Below the pieces are notes generated by a model, which saw nothing but the letters and a program-made list of their open reading frames with translations, ran no database searches and was not told where the DNA came from. Below, piece by piece: positions 2,119 through 10,968 of a stretch of 10,968 nucleotides of DNA (positions within the stretch are counted from its first letter, which is position 1; the number at the start of each line of letters is the position of its first letter). Both the position numbers and the translations under genes were made by a program. Origin of the DNA: a virus (taxonomy: Duplodnaviria; Heunggongvirae; Uroviricota; Caudoviricetes); IMG/VR virus record IMGVR_UViG_2724679172_000013; one strand, 5' to 3'.

Positions 2119-2333
2119 TATTCACCTCTCGCAGCCTTGCGCTTATCTTCTTTAATCTTGAAATAAAGGTTTGTCAGGTACGTCAGCAGGCCAAATACCA
2201 GGCTACCCAGCACACCTATTGCTGCCCACTGTGAGGGCGTGACTTTATCGAGCAGCTGTAAAAACCAGTACCCGGCACTACCTGCTGAGGTGCCATAGGC
2301 GACACCCGTTGTTAACTTATCCATGGATTTCAT
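2118..2333 (-). CDS. S: class II holin / pinholin (S21-like), 71 aa, with dual-start motif
   Basis: MKSMDK... has two in-frame starts (M1 and M4) as in holin/antiholin pairs. Two TM segments and a charged C-terminus ([13 protein letters not shown]). GAGGTGGGG RBS upstream. First gene of the S-R-Rz/Rz1 cassette. Confidence 0.9.
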
Positions 2334-2444
2334 AACCCCACCTCGCAGACAAAGCGGGTGTAAATTGAGGGAATACTACGAAACGTAACAGACTCGGAGT
2401 CAGTGAATAACTCAGGTATTGGGTTATCAGCTAATATCGAGACT

Positions 2445-2478
2445 CAAAAAATGGAAAAACCCGCTCGACGGCGGGTTT
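2445..2478 (-). terminator. candidate intrinsic terminator about 110 nt upstream of the holin start (tR'-like position)
   Basis: Minus-strand RNA: CCCGC-CGUCGA-GCGGG followed by UUUUUCCAUUUUUU. Sits between the AT-rich nmpC upstream region and the holin gene. Confidence 0.45.
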
Positions 2479-2906
2479 AAGCTGTGTGACGAAGTAACCA
2501 CTCTTAACAGCATAACCAATTTTTTACGTACGTAAACCACTAAATGATATTTGCGAGAATGCTACCGAGTATTGAAAACACCACTACAAATACATAAGCA
2601 AATCTCAACAAATAACCAACAAATAATTTCCAGCGTTATTTTTAGCCAATTTAAATTGAACCTTCAAATTATAGAGCACTTATAAATAACAGCCATTAAT
2701 ATAAATTGGCTAATAGATTTATTTTTATTCAGCCAAGAGCCATGAATAGGATTCGATAGAAAAAAGTTCAGATAAAAATAGAGATCTACTTCACAAATTA
2801 AACGAGAAACCAAAACTTACATCTTGAAATAATCACATTGATTAGATGAATATTTATCGCGCAGTGACATCATTTTTTAATAATAGTTCAAAAAAAAGGG
2901 CTCACG

Positions 2907-3989
2907 ATGAAAAAATTAACAGTGGCAATTTCTGCTGTAGCTGCATCAGTACTGATGGCGATGTCTGCTCAGGCAGCTGAAATTTATAATAAAGACAGTA
3001 ACAAGCTGGATCTGTACGGGAAAGTTAATGCTAAGCACTACTTCTCCTCTAATGATGCAGATGATGGTGATACTACTTATGCCCGTCTTGGCTTCAAAGG
3101 TGAAACCCAAATCAACGATCAACTGACTGGTTTCGGTCAGTGGGAATATGAATTCAAAGGCAACCGCGCTGAATCTCAAGGTTCTTCCAAAGACAAAACC
3201 CGTCTTGCATTTGCAGGCCTGAAATTTGGTGATTACGGCTCAATCGATTACGGCCGTAACTACGGTGTAGCATACGACATCGGTGCGTGGACTGACGTCC
3301 TGCCAGAATTCGGTGGTGATACCTGGACCCAAACAGATGTGTTCATGACTGGTCGCACTACTGGTGTTGCAACTTATCGTAACAACGACTTCTTTGGTCT
3401 GGTCGATGGCCTGAACTTTGCTGCTCAGTATCAGGGTAAAAATGACCGCACTGACGTAACTGAAGCCAATGGTGATGGTTTCGGTTTCTCCACTACTTAT
3501 GAGTATGAAGGATTCGGCGTGGGTGCAACCTATGCTAAATCAGATCGCACTGACGGTCAGGTCGCCTATGGTAAGAGCAAATTCAATGCCTCCGGCAAAA
3601 ATGCGGAAGTATGGGCTGCAGGCCTGAAATATGATGCGAACAATATCTATCTGGCTACCACATATTCTGAAACTCAGAATATGACCGTTTTTGGTAATAA
3701 CCATATTGCAAACAAAGCACAAAACTTTGAAGCAGTAGCACAATATCAGTTTGACTTCGGTCTGCGCCCATCTGTTGCTTACCTTCAGTCAAAAGGTAAA
3801 GACCTTGGTGTTCATGGTGACCGAGACTTAGTCAAGTATGTCGATGTCGGTGCTACTTACTACTTTAATAAAAACATGTCCACTTTTGTTGATTACAAAA
3901 TCAACTTAATTGACGATAGTAAGTTTACCAAAACAGCTGGTATTGATACTGATGACATCGTTGCTGTAGGTCTGGTTTACCAGTTCTAA
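2907..3989 (+). CDS. nmpC: outer-membrane general porin (OmpC/OmpF/PhoE family; prophage NmpC/OmpD-like), intact
   Basis: 360 aa. Signal peptide [23 protein letters not shown] then AEIYNKD; porin hallmarks including C-terminal ...[17 protein letters not shown] 7 nt upstream. Location between Q and the lysis genes on the opposite strand matches prophage nmpC. Confidence 0.9.
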
Positions 3990-4005
3990 TCTGATTACGA
4001 AAAAG

Positions 4006-4039
4006 ATATGTTGCGGGAGGCGTTGCCTCCCCAACATAT
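4006..4039. other. strong GC-rich hairpin at the nmpC 3' end; terminator-like on the minus strand
   Basis: atatgttg-c-gggaggc / gcctccc-caacatat, about 15 bp of stem with a 3-nt loop. On the minus strand it is followed by CUUUUUC (plus 3999-4005). Two more hairpins lie at about 4041-4060 and 4065-4088. Confidence 0.4.
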
Positions 4040-4126
4040 AAGTGGCTCCCTCAAGCCACTTCCTTTAGAAGCACAACCTTGCTTCTAACTATATAAACCT
4101 TCTGTTATATATTACCCTTTATTTTT

Positions 4127-4152
4127 GGGGGCGTCTCAACGCCCCATTTTTA
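4127..4152 (+). terminator. candidate intrinsic terminator for nmpC (plus strand)
   Basis: GGGGCG-tctcaa-CGCCCC stem-loop followed by ATTTTTAATAATTTTT on the plus strand. The minus-strand side is followed by an A-run, so it reads as a plus-strand terminator. Confidence 0.55.
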
Positions 4153-4178
4153 ATAATTTTTAGTAAACAATTGGCATA

Positions 4179-4562
4179 TTAATTAGAGTTATTAACAACG
4201 ATATCCATCTCTAACCGGATATCTAATGCCATTAACATCCCTTCAATTATGCCCTCAGCCTTTTGTAACCTTTTCCCGATATAACCATCAGAGCAGCAAT
4301 GCTTACCTGCCAGTGACATGAATGTCATACCGACTACATAATAATCTACTAATAAATCGTGCAAATCGCTGTTGTTCTTTTTCAGACGGGCCATGCACCC
4401 GCAAATGATCATCGCGTCATCGTCACAACATTGCGGGCGAGATTTTACTTTTGAAGGAATTAATCCCTTAAAACCGGCGGCAATGGACGACCAGGTCACA
4501 TCTTCATGATTATTAGCCGCCCACGCTCCCCAACGCTCAAGAACCATCTGAATATCACGCAT
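4179..4562 (-). CDS. Q: late-gene antiterminator Q (phage 21/82-type, QuuD-like)
   Basis: ORF 4179..4577; preferred start [14 protein letters not shown] (127 aa). Cys-rich motifs ([20 protein letters not shown]). Position immediately downstream of rusA/ylcG and before the lysis cassette. Confidence 0.85.
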
Positions 4563-4647
4563 CAACTTACTCCACAAAACTCAGACCAGAACGCCAATTA
4601 CAAGCAAAAATCAACAAAACAGTATTAGTTGATTGTTATCTCTGACT

Positions 4648-6991: not shown

Positions 6992-7600
6992 TTATTGCAA
7001 CAGATTCTGACGGAAATATGGTAACACACGACTCCACTTATCATCCTGCCACGGTTGGAATTTTACATGCGCCGTTTCTCTGGCAAGGATTTCTCGCGCC
7101 CTGTTGAGTATCCGAGGATATTCTTGTTCGATTGAAGTGAATCTACCTGCTTCGCGATGCTCTGCGACCTGAAGAAGGGGCGTAACGTTCTGGCAGGCGG
7201 TTAACATCGTATCACTTGCTCGCCATAACCAGGCGAGTGTGCAAAGTTCGTTATCAGTGAATTGTTTTGTGATTGGGGATTGTTGAACTTCTCGATCGAG
7301 AATATCCAGAACCCAGCGGCGGAATTCTTTGGCCACAGGAGTACGAGCAAACATGGCGATCAAATGGGCTCCGCGAAGGCTAAATACTCGAGACTCCTGC
7401 ATTCCACGAGGGGTGGTCACTTTGACCACCCTTGTCATCATATCTGTGAATTCATCTGAGTGCCGAGAGTAAATGCGCTGAACTGCTTTATCGTCCGCAT
7501 ATTCCAGTGCTAAACCAACTTCAGTGGCAGTAAGCCAAATTCTGTTATTGTGGCAAATCGGGGTAAACGTCGTTTTGTGGAATGCTAATTGAGTAGTCAT
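6992..7600 (-). CDS. Bro-N / KilA-N-like N-terminal domain protein (Roi/antirepressor-like), 202 aa
   Basis: N-terminal region (FHKTTFTPICHNNRIWLTATEVGLALEY...VFSLRGAHLIAMFARTPVAKEFRRWVLDIL) matches the Bro-N-type pattern by eye. GAGGTGA RBS 7 nt upstream. Domain call not verified by HMM. Confidence 0.7.
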   Translation of the reverse strand: MTTQLAFHKTTFTPICHNNRIWLTATEVGLALEYADDKAVQRIYSRHSDEFTDMMTRVVKVTTPRGMQESRVFSLRGAHLIAMFARTPVAKEFRRWVLDILDREVQQSPITKQFTDNELCTLAWLWRASDTMLTACQNVTPLLQVAEHREAGRFTSIEQEYPRILNRAREILARETAHVKFQPWQDDKWSRVLPYFRQNLLQ

Positions 7601-8412: not shown

Positions 8413-9915
8413 ATGACTCAAACTCCTCTATTACTTGCAATCATATTTTTATTGGTTGTTCTTGTTCTTTATATAGCTGCAATCAAACGCATCAAAAAAA
8501 TACAATTAGAATTAAGTGATAGCAATCAAAAAAATGAAGAATACAAATCTCGCTTTGCAGATTATTTTAATGTAGAAGAAGAATGTAAGAAGCTTATTGA
8601 GAAAACAGAGCAAGAATGCTCCATAATAAAAGAAGAATCCCTAAAAGTAAAAGAAAATGCCAATAATGAACTAACAAACACCATTGAAAAAATGGATGGT
8701 ATCAATAAACAAATCCAAGAGCTAAGAAGAACTTATAAAGAGAAGAAAGAAATATATGATAAACTAGTAAGGCAAATTTCTATTTATTCAGAAGATGTTG
8801 AGCTAGCCGAACTAGGATTTTACGAACCTCATTTTAATTTTGAAGATTCAGAGCAATTTAAAAACAAAATAAAATCCATCAGGGATGAACAGAAATTAAT
8901 GCTGCGGGATAAAACCCACTCTGGCGCAGTATATTGTACAACCCAATGGACTGTTGAAGGCTCTCGAGCAGAGGGTAAAAAAATGACAGACAGAAATATC
9001 AGGCTAACTACTAGAGCATTTAATAATGAATGTGATGCTGCAATTAGCAATTGCACGTGGAAAAACATCACTAAAATGGAAGAACGCATCACAAAGGCAT
9101 TTGAGGCCATAAATAAACTAAACGAGCAAAATCACATATATATAAACACTAAATACCTCAATAAAAAACTTGAGGAATTGTGGCTTACCCATGAATATCG
9201 TGAGCAAAAACAGAAAGAAAAAGAAGAACAGGCAGAAATAAGGGCACAAATGAGAGAGGAGGAGCGTGCACAACGAGAAATAGAAAAGGCCATGCAAGAC
9301 GCAGAGGCAGAAGAGCGCCGTTATAAAAAAGCAATTGAAGCTGCAAGAAAGGAAATGGAAAAAGTTACTGGTGACATGAAGCAGCGCCTCGAAAATCGCA
9401 TTGCCGAACTAGAACAGAGTTTGTCGCAGGCTGAATCAAAGCATCAAAGAGCATTATCCATGGCACAACAAACCAAACAAGGTCATGTTTATATTATTTC
9501 GAACATAGGTTCTTTTGGGGAGAATGTTTATAAAATAGGCATGACACGACGTCTTGATCCGCAAGACCGTGTAAATGAGCTCGGTGATGCATCTGTTCCT
9601 TTTATTTTTGATGTACATGCCATGATTTATTCGGAGGACGCTCCATCATTAGAAAAAAAACTACATGATGTCTTCGATAAAAAGAGAGTCAATCTTGTAA
9701 ATCGTAGAAAAGAGTTTTTCTATGTTACTCTGGATGAGATCAAAGAAGCTGTTAAAAAACACTCTGATTCAGAAATTGAATTTATTGAGACAGCAGTCGC
9801 AAAAGACTTTAATGAGTCATTGGCTATTCGTAATCATGAAAATAAAAAAAGTGACAACAGCAACTCATCAATTATACCTGAGCGAAAAACCCCAGAGTTT
9901 GCAGATGCAATTTAA
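8413..9915 (+). CDS. membrane-anchored coiled-coil protein with C-terminal GIY-YIG-like (T5orf172-type) putative nuclease domain; candidate anti-phage defence / abortive-infection protein
   Basis: 500-aa ORF, opposite strand to flanking phage genes, visibly AT-rich. N-terminal TM helix (LLLAIIFLLVVLVLYIAAI), two long K/E-rich coiled-coil-like segments, and C-terminal GHVYIISNIGSFGENVYKIGMTRRLDPQDRVNELG. AAGGA RBS upstream. Confidence 0.85.
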   Translation: MTQTPLLLAIIFLLVVLVLYIAAIKRIKKIQLELSDSNQKNEEYKSRFADYFNVEEECKKLIEKTEQECSIIKEESLKVKENANNELTNTIEKMDGINKQIQELRRTYKEKKEIYDKLVRQISIYSEDVELAELGFYEPHFNFEDSEQFKNKIKSIRDEQKLMLRDKTHSGAVYCTTQWTVEGSRAEGKKMTDRNIRLTTRAFNNECDAAISNCTWKNITKMEERITKAFEAINKLNEQNHIYINTKYLNKKLEELWLTHEYREQKQKEKEEQAEIRAQMREEERAQREIEKAMQDAEAEERRYKKAIEAARKEMEKVTGDMKQRLENRIAELEQSLSQAESKHQRALSMAQQTKQGHVYIISNIGSFGENVYKIGMTRRLDPQDRVNELGDASVPFIFDVHAMIYSEDAPSLEKKLHDVFDKKRVNLVNRRKEFFYVTLDEIKEAVKKHSDSEIEFIETAVAKDFNESLAIRNHENKKSDNSNSSIIPERKTPEFADAI

Positions 9916-10163: not shown

Positions 10164-10466
10164 TCACAGCAAGTTTAAGTTCATATCTCCATACACTGCC
10201 AACACTCGTTTCATCGCGGCACTCTGGCGACACTCCTTGAAAATCAGATTCGTGCTCACCTTTCCTTCCCGTTCTTCCCTGGTAGCGAACCGGTAATACA
10301 CCGTTCGCCAGACCTTACCATCAACGACCAAGATTCCTGCCCGTGCCATTTTAGCCGCAGCCTGATTTATACTGGTTACTGTTGCGCCTGTTACCGCAGC
10401 AACGTCCTGCGCACAGAAGCTCTTATGCGTCCCCAGGTAATGAATAATTGCCTCTTTGCCCGTCAT
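10164..10466 (-). CDS. ren: Ren-like protein
   Basis: MTGKEAIIHYLGTHKSFCAQDVAAVTGATVTSINQAAAKMARAGILVV... recognised as lambda Ren-like. ATG overlaps the P stop (ATGA), as in lambda. Confidence 0.85.
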   Translation of the reverse strand: MTGKEAIIHYLGTHKSFCAQDVAAVTGATVTSINQAAAKMARAGILVVDGKVWRTVYYRFATREEREGKVSTNLIFKECRQSAAMKRVLAVYGDMNLNLL

Positions 10467-10968
10467 ACAGTTGCTCCTTTCAGTCCGAACTTCGCTTTGA
10501 TTTCTGCGATCTTCGCCAGAGCCTGTGCACGATTTAGAGGTCTACCGCCCATGACAGGAAGTTGTTTTACTGGTTCAGGTATCGCCTCACCACGGTTAAT
10601 TCGCGCGGTCATACAAGTCAGTTCATCGGCAGCCTTGCGCCGTAATTCCGCATCAGTAAGCGCATTGGCCCGCATGTTCTGATACAGGTTGGTAACCAGC
10701 CAGTAGTGCGCGTTTGATTTCCACGGATAAGACTCTGCATCCGGATACAGGCCACGCTTCCGGCAATAGTTTGATTTCCACGGATAAGACTCTGCATCCG
10801 GATACAGGCCACGCTTCCGGCAATACTCGTAAACCATATCAACCAGCTCGCTGGTGTTTGGTAGTCCGGCAATAACGGATGCTTCTTCCCGGCACCAGGC
10901 TACAAACTGTCCGGGGGATGGCAGGAATGGTCGATTCTGCCGACGGGCTACGCGCATTCCTGCGTTAA
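10463..10968 (-). CDS. P: replication protein P (lambda P-like), 3' portion; ORF continues beyond the window edge
   Basis: ...RQNRPFLPSPGQFVAWCREEASVIAGLPN...MGGRPLNRAQALAKIAEIKAKFGLKGATV matches the lambda P C-terminal region from memory. Frame stays open upstream of the first in-window ATG to the window end. Contains a 19-aa in-frame tandem duplication. Confidence 0.85.
   Translation of the reverse strand, partial: NAGMRVARRQNRPFLPSPGQFVAWCREEASVIAGLPNTSELVDMVYEYCRKRGLYPDAESYPWKSNYCRKRGLYPDAESYPWKSNAHYWLVTNLYQNMRANALTDAELRRKAADELTCMTARINRGEAIPEPVKQLPVMGGRPLNRAQALAKIAEIKAKFGLKGATV
10712..10825. repeat. perfect tandem duplication, 2 x 57 bp, in frame within P
   Basis: 10712..10768 and 10769..10825 are identical by direct reading (gtttgatttccacggataagactctgcatccggatacaggccacgcttccggcaata). 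Encodes YCRKRGLYPDAESYPWKSN twice. Confidence 0.9.

Follow-up and report, generated by a model that had tools for sequence, protein, structure and literature searches.

The window analysed here, a stretch of 10,968 nucleotides (nt) from the Caudoviricetes record IMGVR_UViG_2724679172_000013, covers the nin/late region of an Escherichia coli lambdoid prophage of the DLP12/PA-2 type. Its phage genes run along the minus strand, and a porin gene, nmpC, lies antisense between the antiterminator gene Q and the holin gene. Minus-strand positions 2536-2446 are very probably the Q-controlled late cassette of this phage, comprising a sigma70 promoter (PR'), a Q-loading region and a short leader ended by a tR' terminator, placed directly upstream of a phage-21-type lysis cassette. 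We regard it as a member of the Q933W family that was displaced from Q by a porin module. Its parts, all on the minus strand, are as follows.

2565-2524, minus: possible 3' remnant of Q in a longer, ancestral form, with an in-frame TAA (2526-2524) in the promoter spacer
2536-2509, minus: predicted PR'-type late promoter, homologous to the annotated PR' of 933W and to H-19B
2536-2531, minus: -35 hexamer TTTACG, followed by a 16-nt spacer
2536-2523, minus: candidate Q-binding element, a perfect palindrome of 14 base pairs (bp), TTTACGTACGTAAA (our own proposal from the sequence)
2514-2509, minus: -10 hexamer TATGCT
2504-2501, minus: range of the predicted transcription start, A2502
2505-2488, minus: start of the late leader, with the conserved core and the qut equivalent
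2505-2494, minus: conserved core AAGAGTGGTTAC, present in a single copy in the window
2496-2491, minus: candidate sigma-dependent pause element TACTTC
2495-2488, minus: ACTTCGTC, counterpart of the 933W 'qut' ACATTGCC
2478-2446, minus: tR'-type intrinsic terminator, stem-loop at 2478-2457 and then UUUUUCCAUUUUUU at 2456-2446
2445-2334, minus: untranslated leader from tR' to the holin, with the ribosome-binding site GAGGTG at 2344-2339

Anatomy, homology and conservation of the probable late cassette

A search of the phage records with positions 2334-2620 gave 36 full-length matches, all from phages carrying the porin, and approximately 280 matches confined to 2455-2537 (77-78% identity, including 933W, VT1-Sakai and related Shiga toxin (Stx) phages), which fall on a stretch annotated as 'promoter', 'terminator', 'Q' or 'other'. 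The 933W record places PR' (20666-20693), qut (20707-20714) and the first terminator (20726-20748) directly after Q, whose stop codon lies inside the PR' spacer, in CGTAAAAA; this string is retained in the window. Pairwise alignment with 933W showed conservation of GTTTACG, CGTAAAAA, the -10 region, AAGAGTGGTTAC and the hairpin, and H-19B aligned likewise. The palindrome TTTACGTACGTAAA of the window corresponds to TTTACGATCGTAAA in 933W, and the possible leftover of a longer Q gene would end in SVAFSQISFSGLRT before its stop codon, compared with SVFYQRKNSLRS at the 933W Q tail, a similarity that is weak. Within the group of Stx phages that share this Q family, the start at PR' and the transcript 3' end of Sakai Sp5 were mapped 258 nt apart by differential RNA sequencing (dRNA-seq) and Term-seq (PMC7547250). 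When counted from a start placed 7 nt past the homologous -10 (TATCAT) of Sakai, position +258 coincides exactly with the final T in the T tract of the second terminator, and by analogy this spacing lends indirect support to the start site predicted in the window.

The initial annotation had noted a minus-strand hairpin with a T tract before the holin and called it tR'-like, and both the structure and the label held. The terminator scan called AAACCCGCCGTCGAGCGGGTTT (2478-2457) followed by TTCCATTTTT and no other terminator-like site from the promoter to the holin, with the T tract ending at 2446, 112 nt upstream of the holin ATG (2333). This hairpin is homologous to the first of the terminators that follow PR' in 933W and H-19B; its fold has 8 bp in the stem and 6 nt in the loop (centroid -12 kcal/mol). 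From start to terminator, the predicted leader RNA measures approximately 48-57 nt. Homologous hairpins were found in eight phages, among them 933W, H-19B, PhiR55_1, SfII, 1720a-02 and Stx2_12E129, and in a Morganella phage the hairpin is retained with another stem sequence (CCCCG/CGGGG versus CCCGC/GCGGG). Such retention in homologous cassettes, including the changed Morganella stem, suggests that the terminator is more than a chance structure.

Among the relatives the leader at 2334-2444 takes two forms, which differ by a 16-nt indel (CTGCTTTTTTGCGATA) located approximately 55 nt before the holin ATG. The short form is that of the window and K-12, and no second terminator was found in the 127-nt leader variant of the relatives. 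When searched against Rfam, the leader matched no family at gathering score, and the matches obtained at E up to 10 were to terminator-containing families and reflect chance only (Trp_leader, 20.8 bits against a threshold of 41). The leader was also considered as a homologue of the small RNA (sRNA) StxS. This was rejected because StxS derives from the region before the +258 terminator, which has no counterpart here, the homology to 933W and H-19B stopping at 2455, at the first hairpin.

Conservation was assessed on the Q-to-holin region of 80 viral contigs found with Q, which yielded 66 distinct sequences with Q proteins 98-99% identical to that of the window; wider diversity was sampled by tblastn against phage records. 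Nucleotide diversity (pi) in the 66 sequences was 0.003 for 2520-2481 and 0.015 for 2480-2441, in contrast to 0.04-0.17 over 2560-2760 and up to 0.2 in nmpC. The promoter string was unchanged in all but two of the 66.

The window Q belongs to PF06530 (E=1e-53) and is 79% identical to Q933W, 82% to the Q of H-19B and 30% to Q21, matching the Q21 chains in PDB at E=7e-8; the group has been named the Q21/Q933W family by Yin et al. (10.1101/651190). Kinship with Q82, first considered for the H-19B Q, was rejected, Q82 being unrelated (E=8.6). Only two Q subtype groups were seen, and they differ in the -35/spacer while having the leader and hairpin in common: phages with a Q approximately 52% identical to ours (SfII, VIT_AJPSC, 1720a-02 and Stx2_12E129) have leaders and hairpins 90-96% identical to those of the window, with GCGGTCCGCAAAAA in the -35/spacer where the window subtype has TTTACGTACGTAAAAA. 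The Morganella phage, with a Q 67% identical, retains TTTACGATCGTAAA, and within the window subtype the 14-bp palindrome is conserved. This pattern is modest evidence that Q specificity may reside in the -35/spacer, as in lambda and phage 21.

For Q21, constitutive initiation at PR' is followed by a promoter-near pause, at which Q bound to promoter DNA is loaded onto the polymerase and makes it insensitive to terminators (10.1101/651190). In the window, RNA polymerase would likewise start constitutively at PR', pause near the promoter and, when Q is absent, terminate after approximately 50 nt; Q on the promoter DNA would load onto the paused enzyme and carry it through the terminator into the lysis genes. 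The late transcript would leave out the porin gene, which lies past the end of the early operon and ahead of PR', flanked by the minus-strand terminator at 4039-3999 and by its own plus-strand terminator at 4128-4165. Since nmpC lies upstream of PR', late transcripts need not cross it, and since Q is diffusible and acts in trans, distance from Q should not matter; what differs here is the arrangement and not the mechanism.

The porin module between Q and PR'

The antisense position of nmpC (2907-3989, plus strand) between Q and the holin, both on the minus strand, was correctly described in the initial annotation. DNA homology of Q with both ev087 and PhiR55_1 ends at the same base, 4203 (codon 125), and homology on the far side starts at 2537 for PhiR55_1, H-19B and 933W and at 2532 for SfII. 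From these edges, 4203 and approximately 2537, the module therefore consists of a new 7-codon Q tail, the nmpC 3' untranslated region (UTR) and terminator, nmpC itself and AT-rich upstream DNA. Codons 1-125 of Q are thus common to the relatives and the last seven (4202-4182) are part of the porin module, which occupies 1.66 kb between codon 125 and the -35 (4202 to approximately 2540). The Q stop codon lies 1642 bp from the -35 (4178-2537), and the distance from the Q homology to the PR' block is 88 bp in H-19B versus 1692 bp in the window. Features of the module are as follows.

4128-4165, plus: nmpC terminator, hairpin GGGGCGTCTCAACGCCCC (4128-4145) and then a T-rich tail
4039-3999, minus: intrinsic terminator after Q, a long hairpin (4039-4006) and then CUUUUU (4005-4000), just before the nmpC stop codon
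3990-4127, plus: structured nmpC 3' UTR
2907-3989, plus: intact porin gene nmpC/lc of 360 codons (Porin_1, E=2e-151), antisense to the phage late strand
2560-2906: AT-rich region upstream of nmpC (26-27% GC), part of the porin module
2891-2864, minus: putative sigmaE-like promoter TGAACTA-16 nt-TCACT, with an implied start at approximately 2858, diverging from nmpC

The 189-nt gap between Q and nmpC holds convergent terminators with overlapping 3' ends and is structured on both strands (z -5 to -6). The fold of 4060-3985 reaches -32.9 kcal/mol (z -5.3), and none of 200 shuffles was as stable. Judged from its sequence, the minus-strand terminator at 4039-3999 would stop unmodified early/Q transcripts before they enter nmpC antisense. 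Positions 3990-4200 are 100% identical to the PA-2 lc record J02580, and a search of phage records with this stretch returned 36 matches only, all with the porin. A motif, GTTTAC-TAAAAATT, lies at 4150-4165 on the minus strand, 14 nt past the Q stop, and resembles the PR' -35/spacer (GTTTACGTACGTAAAAAATT) with 5 nt missing; the recombination that brought in the porin module may have left it behind, or it may have arisen by chance in AT-rich DNA. The nmpC 3' UTR is presumably the region described as ipeX. The ipeX sRNA is mentioned by name in PMC3333887 and PMC5745476.

As the initial annotation had it, the DNA upstream of nmpC is AT-rich (26-27% GC at 2600-2899 versus 41-56% in the flanks). 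The block reaches its highest diversity (pi 0.17) around a minus-strand TATAAT, within a hypervariable patch (2641-2700) in which the TATAAT is retained in 59 of the 66 distinct relatives while both flanks vary. On the late strand the patch contains a G run (a C run on the nmpC strand) of 5 to 9 within otherwise identical haplotypes, a variation in which assembly homopolymer errors may play a part. On the plus strand it is set between TTGAAC (2656-2661) and TATAAA (2681-2686), so that it may serve as the porin promoter's spacer and as a phase-variable tract.

The porin gene shows several marks of a moron: it has its own terminator and an upstream block of 26-27% GC, it is missing at this place in 933W and H-19B, and other cargo takes its place in PhiR55_1, SfII and ev087. 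The order Q, porin, PR' block was found in all 78 contigs that reach far enough past Q, and 77 of them run on into this same holin. In PhiR55_1, Q is followed by an antisense open reading frame (ORF) of 148 codons (L084, 3466-3912; no family match), the block and the late genes. The Shigella phage SfII has two antisense ORFs (L088, 3135-4749) between Q and the block, after which comes the holin; in PADLOC the two ORFs hit PDC-M53A/B, a candidate defence pair (E=2e-32 and 3e-54). The block adjoins Q in 933W, H-19B, 1720a-02 and Stx2_12E129. In ev087, a Blc lipocalin gene (L093, 547-1071) directly follows Q from the same in-Q junction (4203); this contig also has a terminator-like hairpin right after Q (AGCCAGCCTCCCCAAAGGCTGGTTTTTTTT) and another approximately 100 nt upstream of the holin (ACGCCAGAATAATCGCTGGCGTTTTT), within 391-546 and 3274-3440. 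The recurrence of the Q-to-PR' gap as a slot for antisense cargo is the sole, and modestly, new point of this analysis. A wider proposal, which we consider rather unlikely, is that the gap from Q codon 125 to the PR' -35 would be a recurrent antisense-cargo slot of Q933W-type lambdoid phages, with fixed junctions at 4203 and approximately 2537-2540, whose cargo would be expressed in the lysogen while convergent terminators shield it from late transcription. The sigmaE-like promoter, the hypervariable patch with its poly-C tract of variable length and tR' could then add stress-responsive or phase-variable control of the porin.

Weighing the origins of late transcription

Several observations weigh against assigning PR' to 2536-2509. 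The hexamers score 8/12 against the consensus and the promoter scan gave no call; it is because only 8 of the 12 positions match that the promoter went uncalled by the scan and was also overlooked in the initial annotation. The candidate pause element TACTTC lacks the last-position T of the 933W element TACATT (at +7 to +12), and an alternative pause motif, AAGAGT, overlaps the predicted start. Our proposed palindrome is unlike the direct repeat of Q21. A G-to-T change at 2462 (GAGCTGG for GAGCGGG in the 3' arm; approximately 8120 in contig L003) is present in approximately half of the close relatives and leaves a C-U mismatch in the stem; for these variants the terminator scan called nothing. 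The stem is intact in the window and in K-12, and the mismatch could make the leakiness of the late genes vary among strains. In Sakai Sp5 the mapped 3' end lies at the second terminator (+258) and not at the first hairpin, so the homologous first hairpin there does not stop all transcripts. Finally, ev087 encodes a Q 89% identical over codons 1-125, and a search for the PR' block in this phage detected no copy, which means that a Q of this type may also act at a diverged site.

Three other accounts of the late promoter were weighed, and each appears highly improbable. The canonical position for lambdoid phages would be beside Q (approximately 4100-4178, minus strand), with a leader ended by the strong hairpin and T run 140-180 nt past the Q stop (4039-3999) and Q-modified polymerase running antisense through nmpC, as the initial annotation had offered as one option; the GTTTAC-TAAAAATT motif, like the -35/spacer of the block, adds to its appeal. 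Against it, the promoter scan found no promoter-like site or hexamer pair on either strand in 3990-4178, the stretch is porin 3' UTR that the search of phage records met next to Q in no porin-free phage, and the homologue of the family cassette stands elsewhere in the window, in single copy. There is hardly more to be said for the TATAAT as the late -10, with the hairpin at 2478 ending a leader of approximately 200 nt. The hexamer is perfect, as the initial annotation stated (it lies at 2668-2673, not at 2671-2676), and it persists despite its hypervariable flanks, but no acceptable -35 accompanies it (the best is ATGGCT at 17 nt), the promoter scan gave no call, and TATAAT alone is not above chance, since the window contains 5 copies against 8.9 expected from shuffles. 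Moreover, its surroundings are porin-module DNA missing from 933W, H-19B, PhiR55_1 and SfII, all of which retain the block and the hairpin, and a leader of some 200 nt that has no homology to the Q family fits that family poorly. The weak promoter match, the stem mismatch in half of the relatives and the defective state of DLP12 itself would suit an inactive relic of an older Q-PR' junction with a leftover hairpin, yet the block is near-invariant beside fast-varying DNA, and 36 phage genome records have this layout and nothing else resembling a late promoter.

Of a different kind is the proposal that the sigmaE-like promoter at 2891-2864, rather than Q at PR', is the main driver of the lysis cassette in the lysogen, with the hairpin at 2478 attenuating a 525-nt leader. 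It is compatible with a Q-controlled PR', and we give it slightly less than an even chance. Passages of PMC7918800 place the DLP12 lysis operon under a phage Q-type antiterminator (citing Rueggeberg 2013) and under RpoE (citing Rueggeberg 2015), and the operon is also under Hha (PMC7918800). The same source names an amplicon '-121 to +650' after Rueggeberg 2015, and the primers in its Table S1 map to 2960-2979 (minus) and approximately 2208-2229 (plus); going by that name, the +1 of Rueggeberg 2015 would therefore fall near 2858, beside TGAACTA-16-TCACT, which resembles the sigmaE consensus. From this primer geometry and the loose match, the RpoE-dependent promoter that has been reported to act on the DLP12 lysis cassette is probably 2891-2864, so that the late strand would carry a second promoter responding to stress. 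The stretch shows low diversity (pi 0.004-0.010), a conservation that may instead reflect the 5' UTR and ribosome site of nmpC on the other strand. Its -10 is imperfect, the stricter pattern GAACT-N15-18-TCNNA had no match in the region, the start derives from primer geometry alone, and transcripts from it would meet tR' with no known route for loading Q. A transcript from approximately 2858 would also be antisense to any long nmpC 5' UTR before meeting tR' at 2478-2446. The K-12 3' end data in the supplements of Adams 2021 have no entry for essD, nmpC or quuD.

A Q-controlled PR' at 2536-2509 thus remains our reading. The initial annotation was right that the late promoter could lie here, far from Q, and went astray in pointing to the TATAAT, porin-module DNA with no late-promoter homologue, as its element; the predicted PR' lies between the AT-rich block and the hairpin. 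It had also left the location of the promoter open; from the holin ATG to approximately 2550, however, the window is identical to DLP12 of K-12 MG1655, which has already been studied, and PR' has been mapped in Stx phages of the same family. Late regulation here is ordinary and essentially already known, and the understanding of Q antitermination is unchanged. What disappears is an apparent paradox, as late transcription in DLP12/PA-2-type phages involves no forced collision with the porin gene. The coordinates of promoter, leader and terminator should be useful for work on the DLP12 lysis genes, outer-membrane vesicles and biofilms, and annotation pipelines that seek PR' right after Q will miss it in this group.

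Gene context and comparison with known systems

The layout is very common: of 5426 complete E. coli genomes, 2396 contain the Q-to-holin stretch over at least 80% of its length. In the 36 phage records with the same layout, the antisense gene is annotated as porin OmpC, OmpD or NmpC. The other genes of the window are as follows.

10463-10957, minus: replication protein P
6992-7600, minus: Bro-N/P22_AR_C antirepressor
among the phage genes on the minus strand: NinB-like protein, YbcO and RusA
4179-4577, minus: Q antiterminator gene, quuD-type, 132 codons from TTG or 127 from ATG
1157-2333, minus: phage-21-type lysis cassette (Pfam Phage_holin_2_1, Phage_lysozyme and Phage_lysis)
2118-2333, minus: S21-type, dual-start holin, ATG at 2333
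1621-2118, minus: lysozyme
1157-1636, minus: Rz

Directly upstream of the antirepressor gene (7600-6992), two Rfam families matched the minus strand above their gathering scores, namely C4 antisense RNA (7732-7647, 74.8 bits) and isrK (7829-7757, 58.7 bits); the arrangement resembles the antirepressor control unit of the P1/P7 type. An ORF of 500 codons (8413-9915, plus strand) opposite the phage early genes contains DUF4041 and T5orf172/MUG113 (GIY-YIG-like) domains and is probably another inserted cargo gene.

Among known systems, the Stx phages 933W, H-19B and Sakai Sp5 have Q proteins 79-82% identical to that of the window and the same order and spacing of parts, with 77-78% DNA identity over the -35, spacer, -10, initial transcribed region and first hairpin. 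Their -35 overlaps the end of Q, whereas that of the window lies 1.64 kb from the Q stop codon, and their leader runs on to the second terminator at +258 (the source of the StxS sRNA), transfer RNA (tRNA) genes and stx, whereas homology in the window ends at the first hairpin and the holin follows 112 nt further on. The same element as in the window is found in DLP12 (qsr') of K-12 and in phage PA-2, with the gene order quuD, nmpC, essD, rrrD, rzpD; the K-12 nmpC is broken by IS5, unlike the intact gene of 360 codons found here. Phage 21, with its PR'21 (Q21; structures 6P18 and 6JNX), shares the Pfam family of Q (30% identity) and an S21-type holin. Its experimentally defined anatomy, which the predicted parts of the window follow, consists in the curated record of a -35, two 8-bp Q-binding subsites in the spacer, a -10, the start, a pause element spanning +2 to +8 and a terminator that extends to +50. 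It has no DNA similarity to the window in the cassette, its Q21 element is a direct repeat of the two 8-bp subsites whereas that of the window is a 14-bp palindrome and a candidate only, and two tRNA genes lie between its tR' and S. The PR'-6S RNA-tR' system of lambda works by the same logic, in that its promoter is constitutive, its leader is short and terminated, and Q loads at a sigma70-dependent pause close to the promoter, but the lambda Q comes from an unrelated family (PF03589) and its cassette adjoins Q. Like the phage morons, of which bor, lom and stx are examples, nmpC comes with a terminator of its own and AT-rich DNA upstream, is encoded on the opposite strand and is missing at this place in related phages; stx, however, sits inside the late transcript, downstream of PR', whereas nmpC lies upstream of PR' and outside that transcript.

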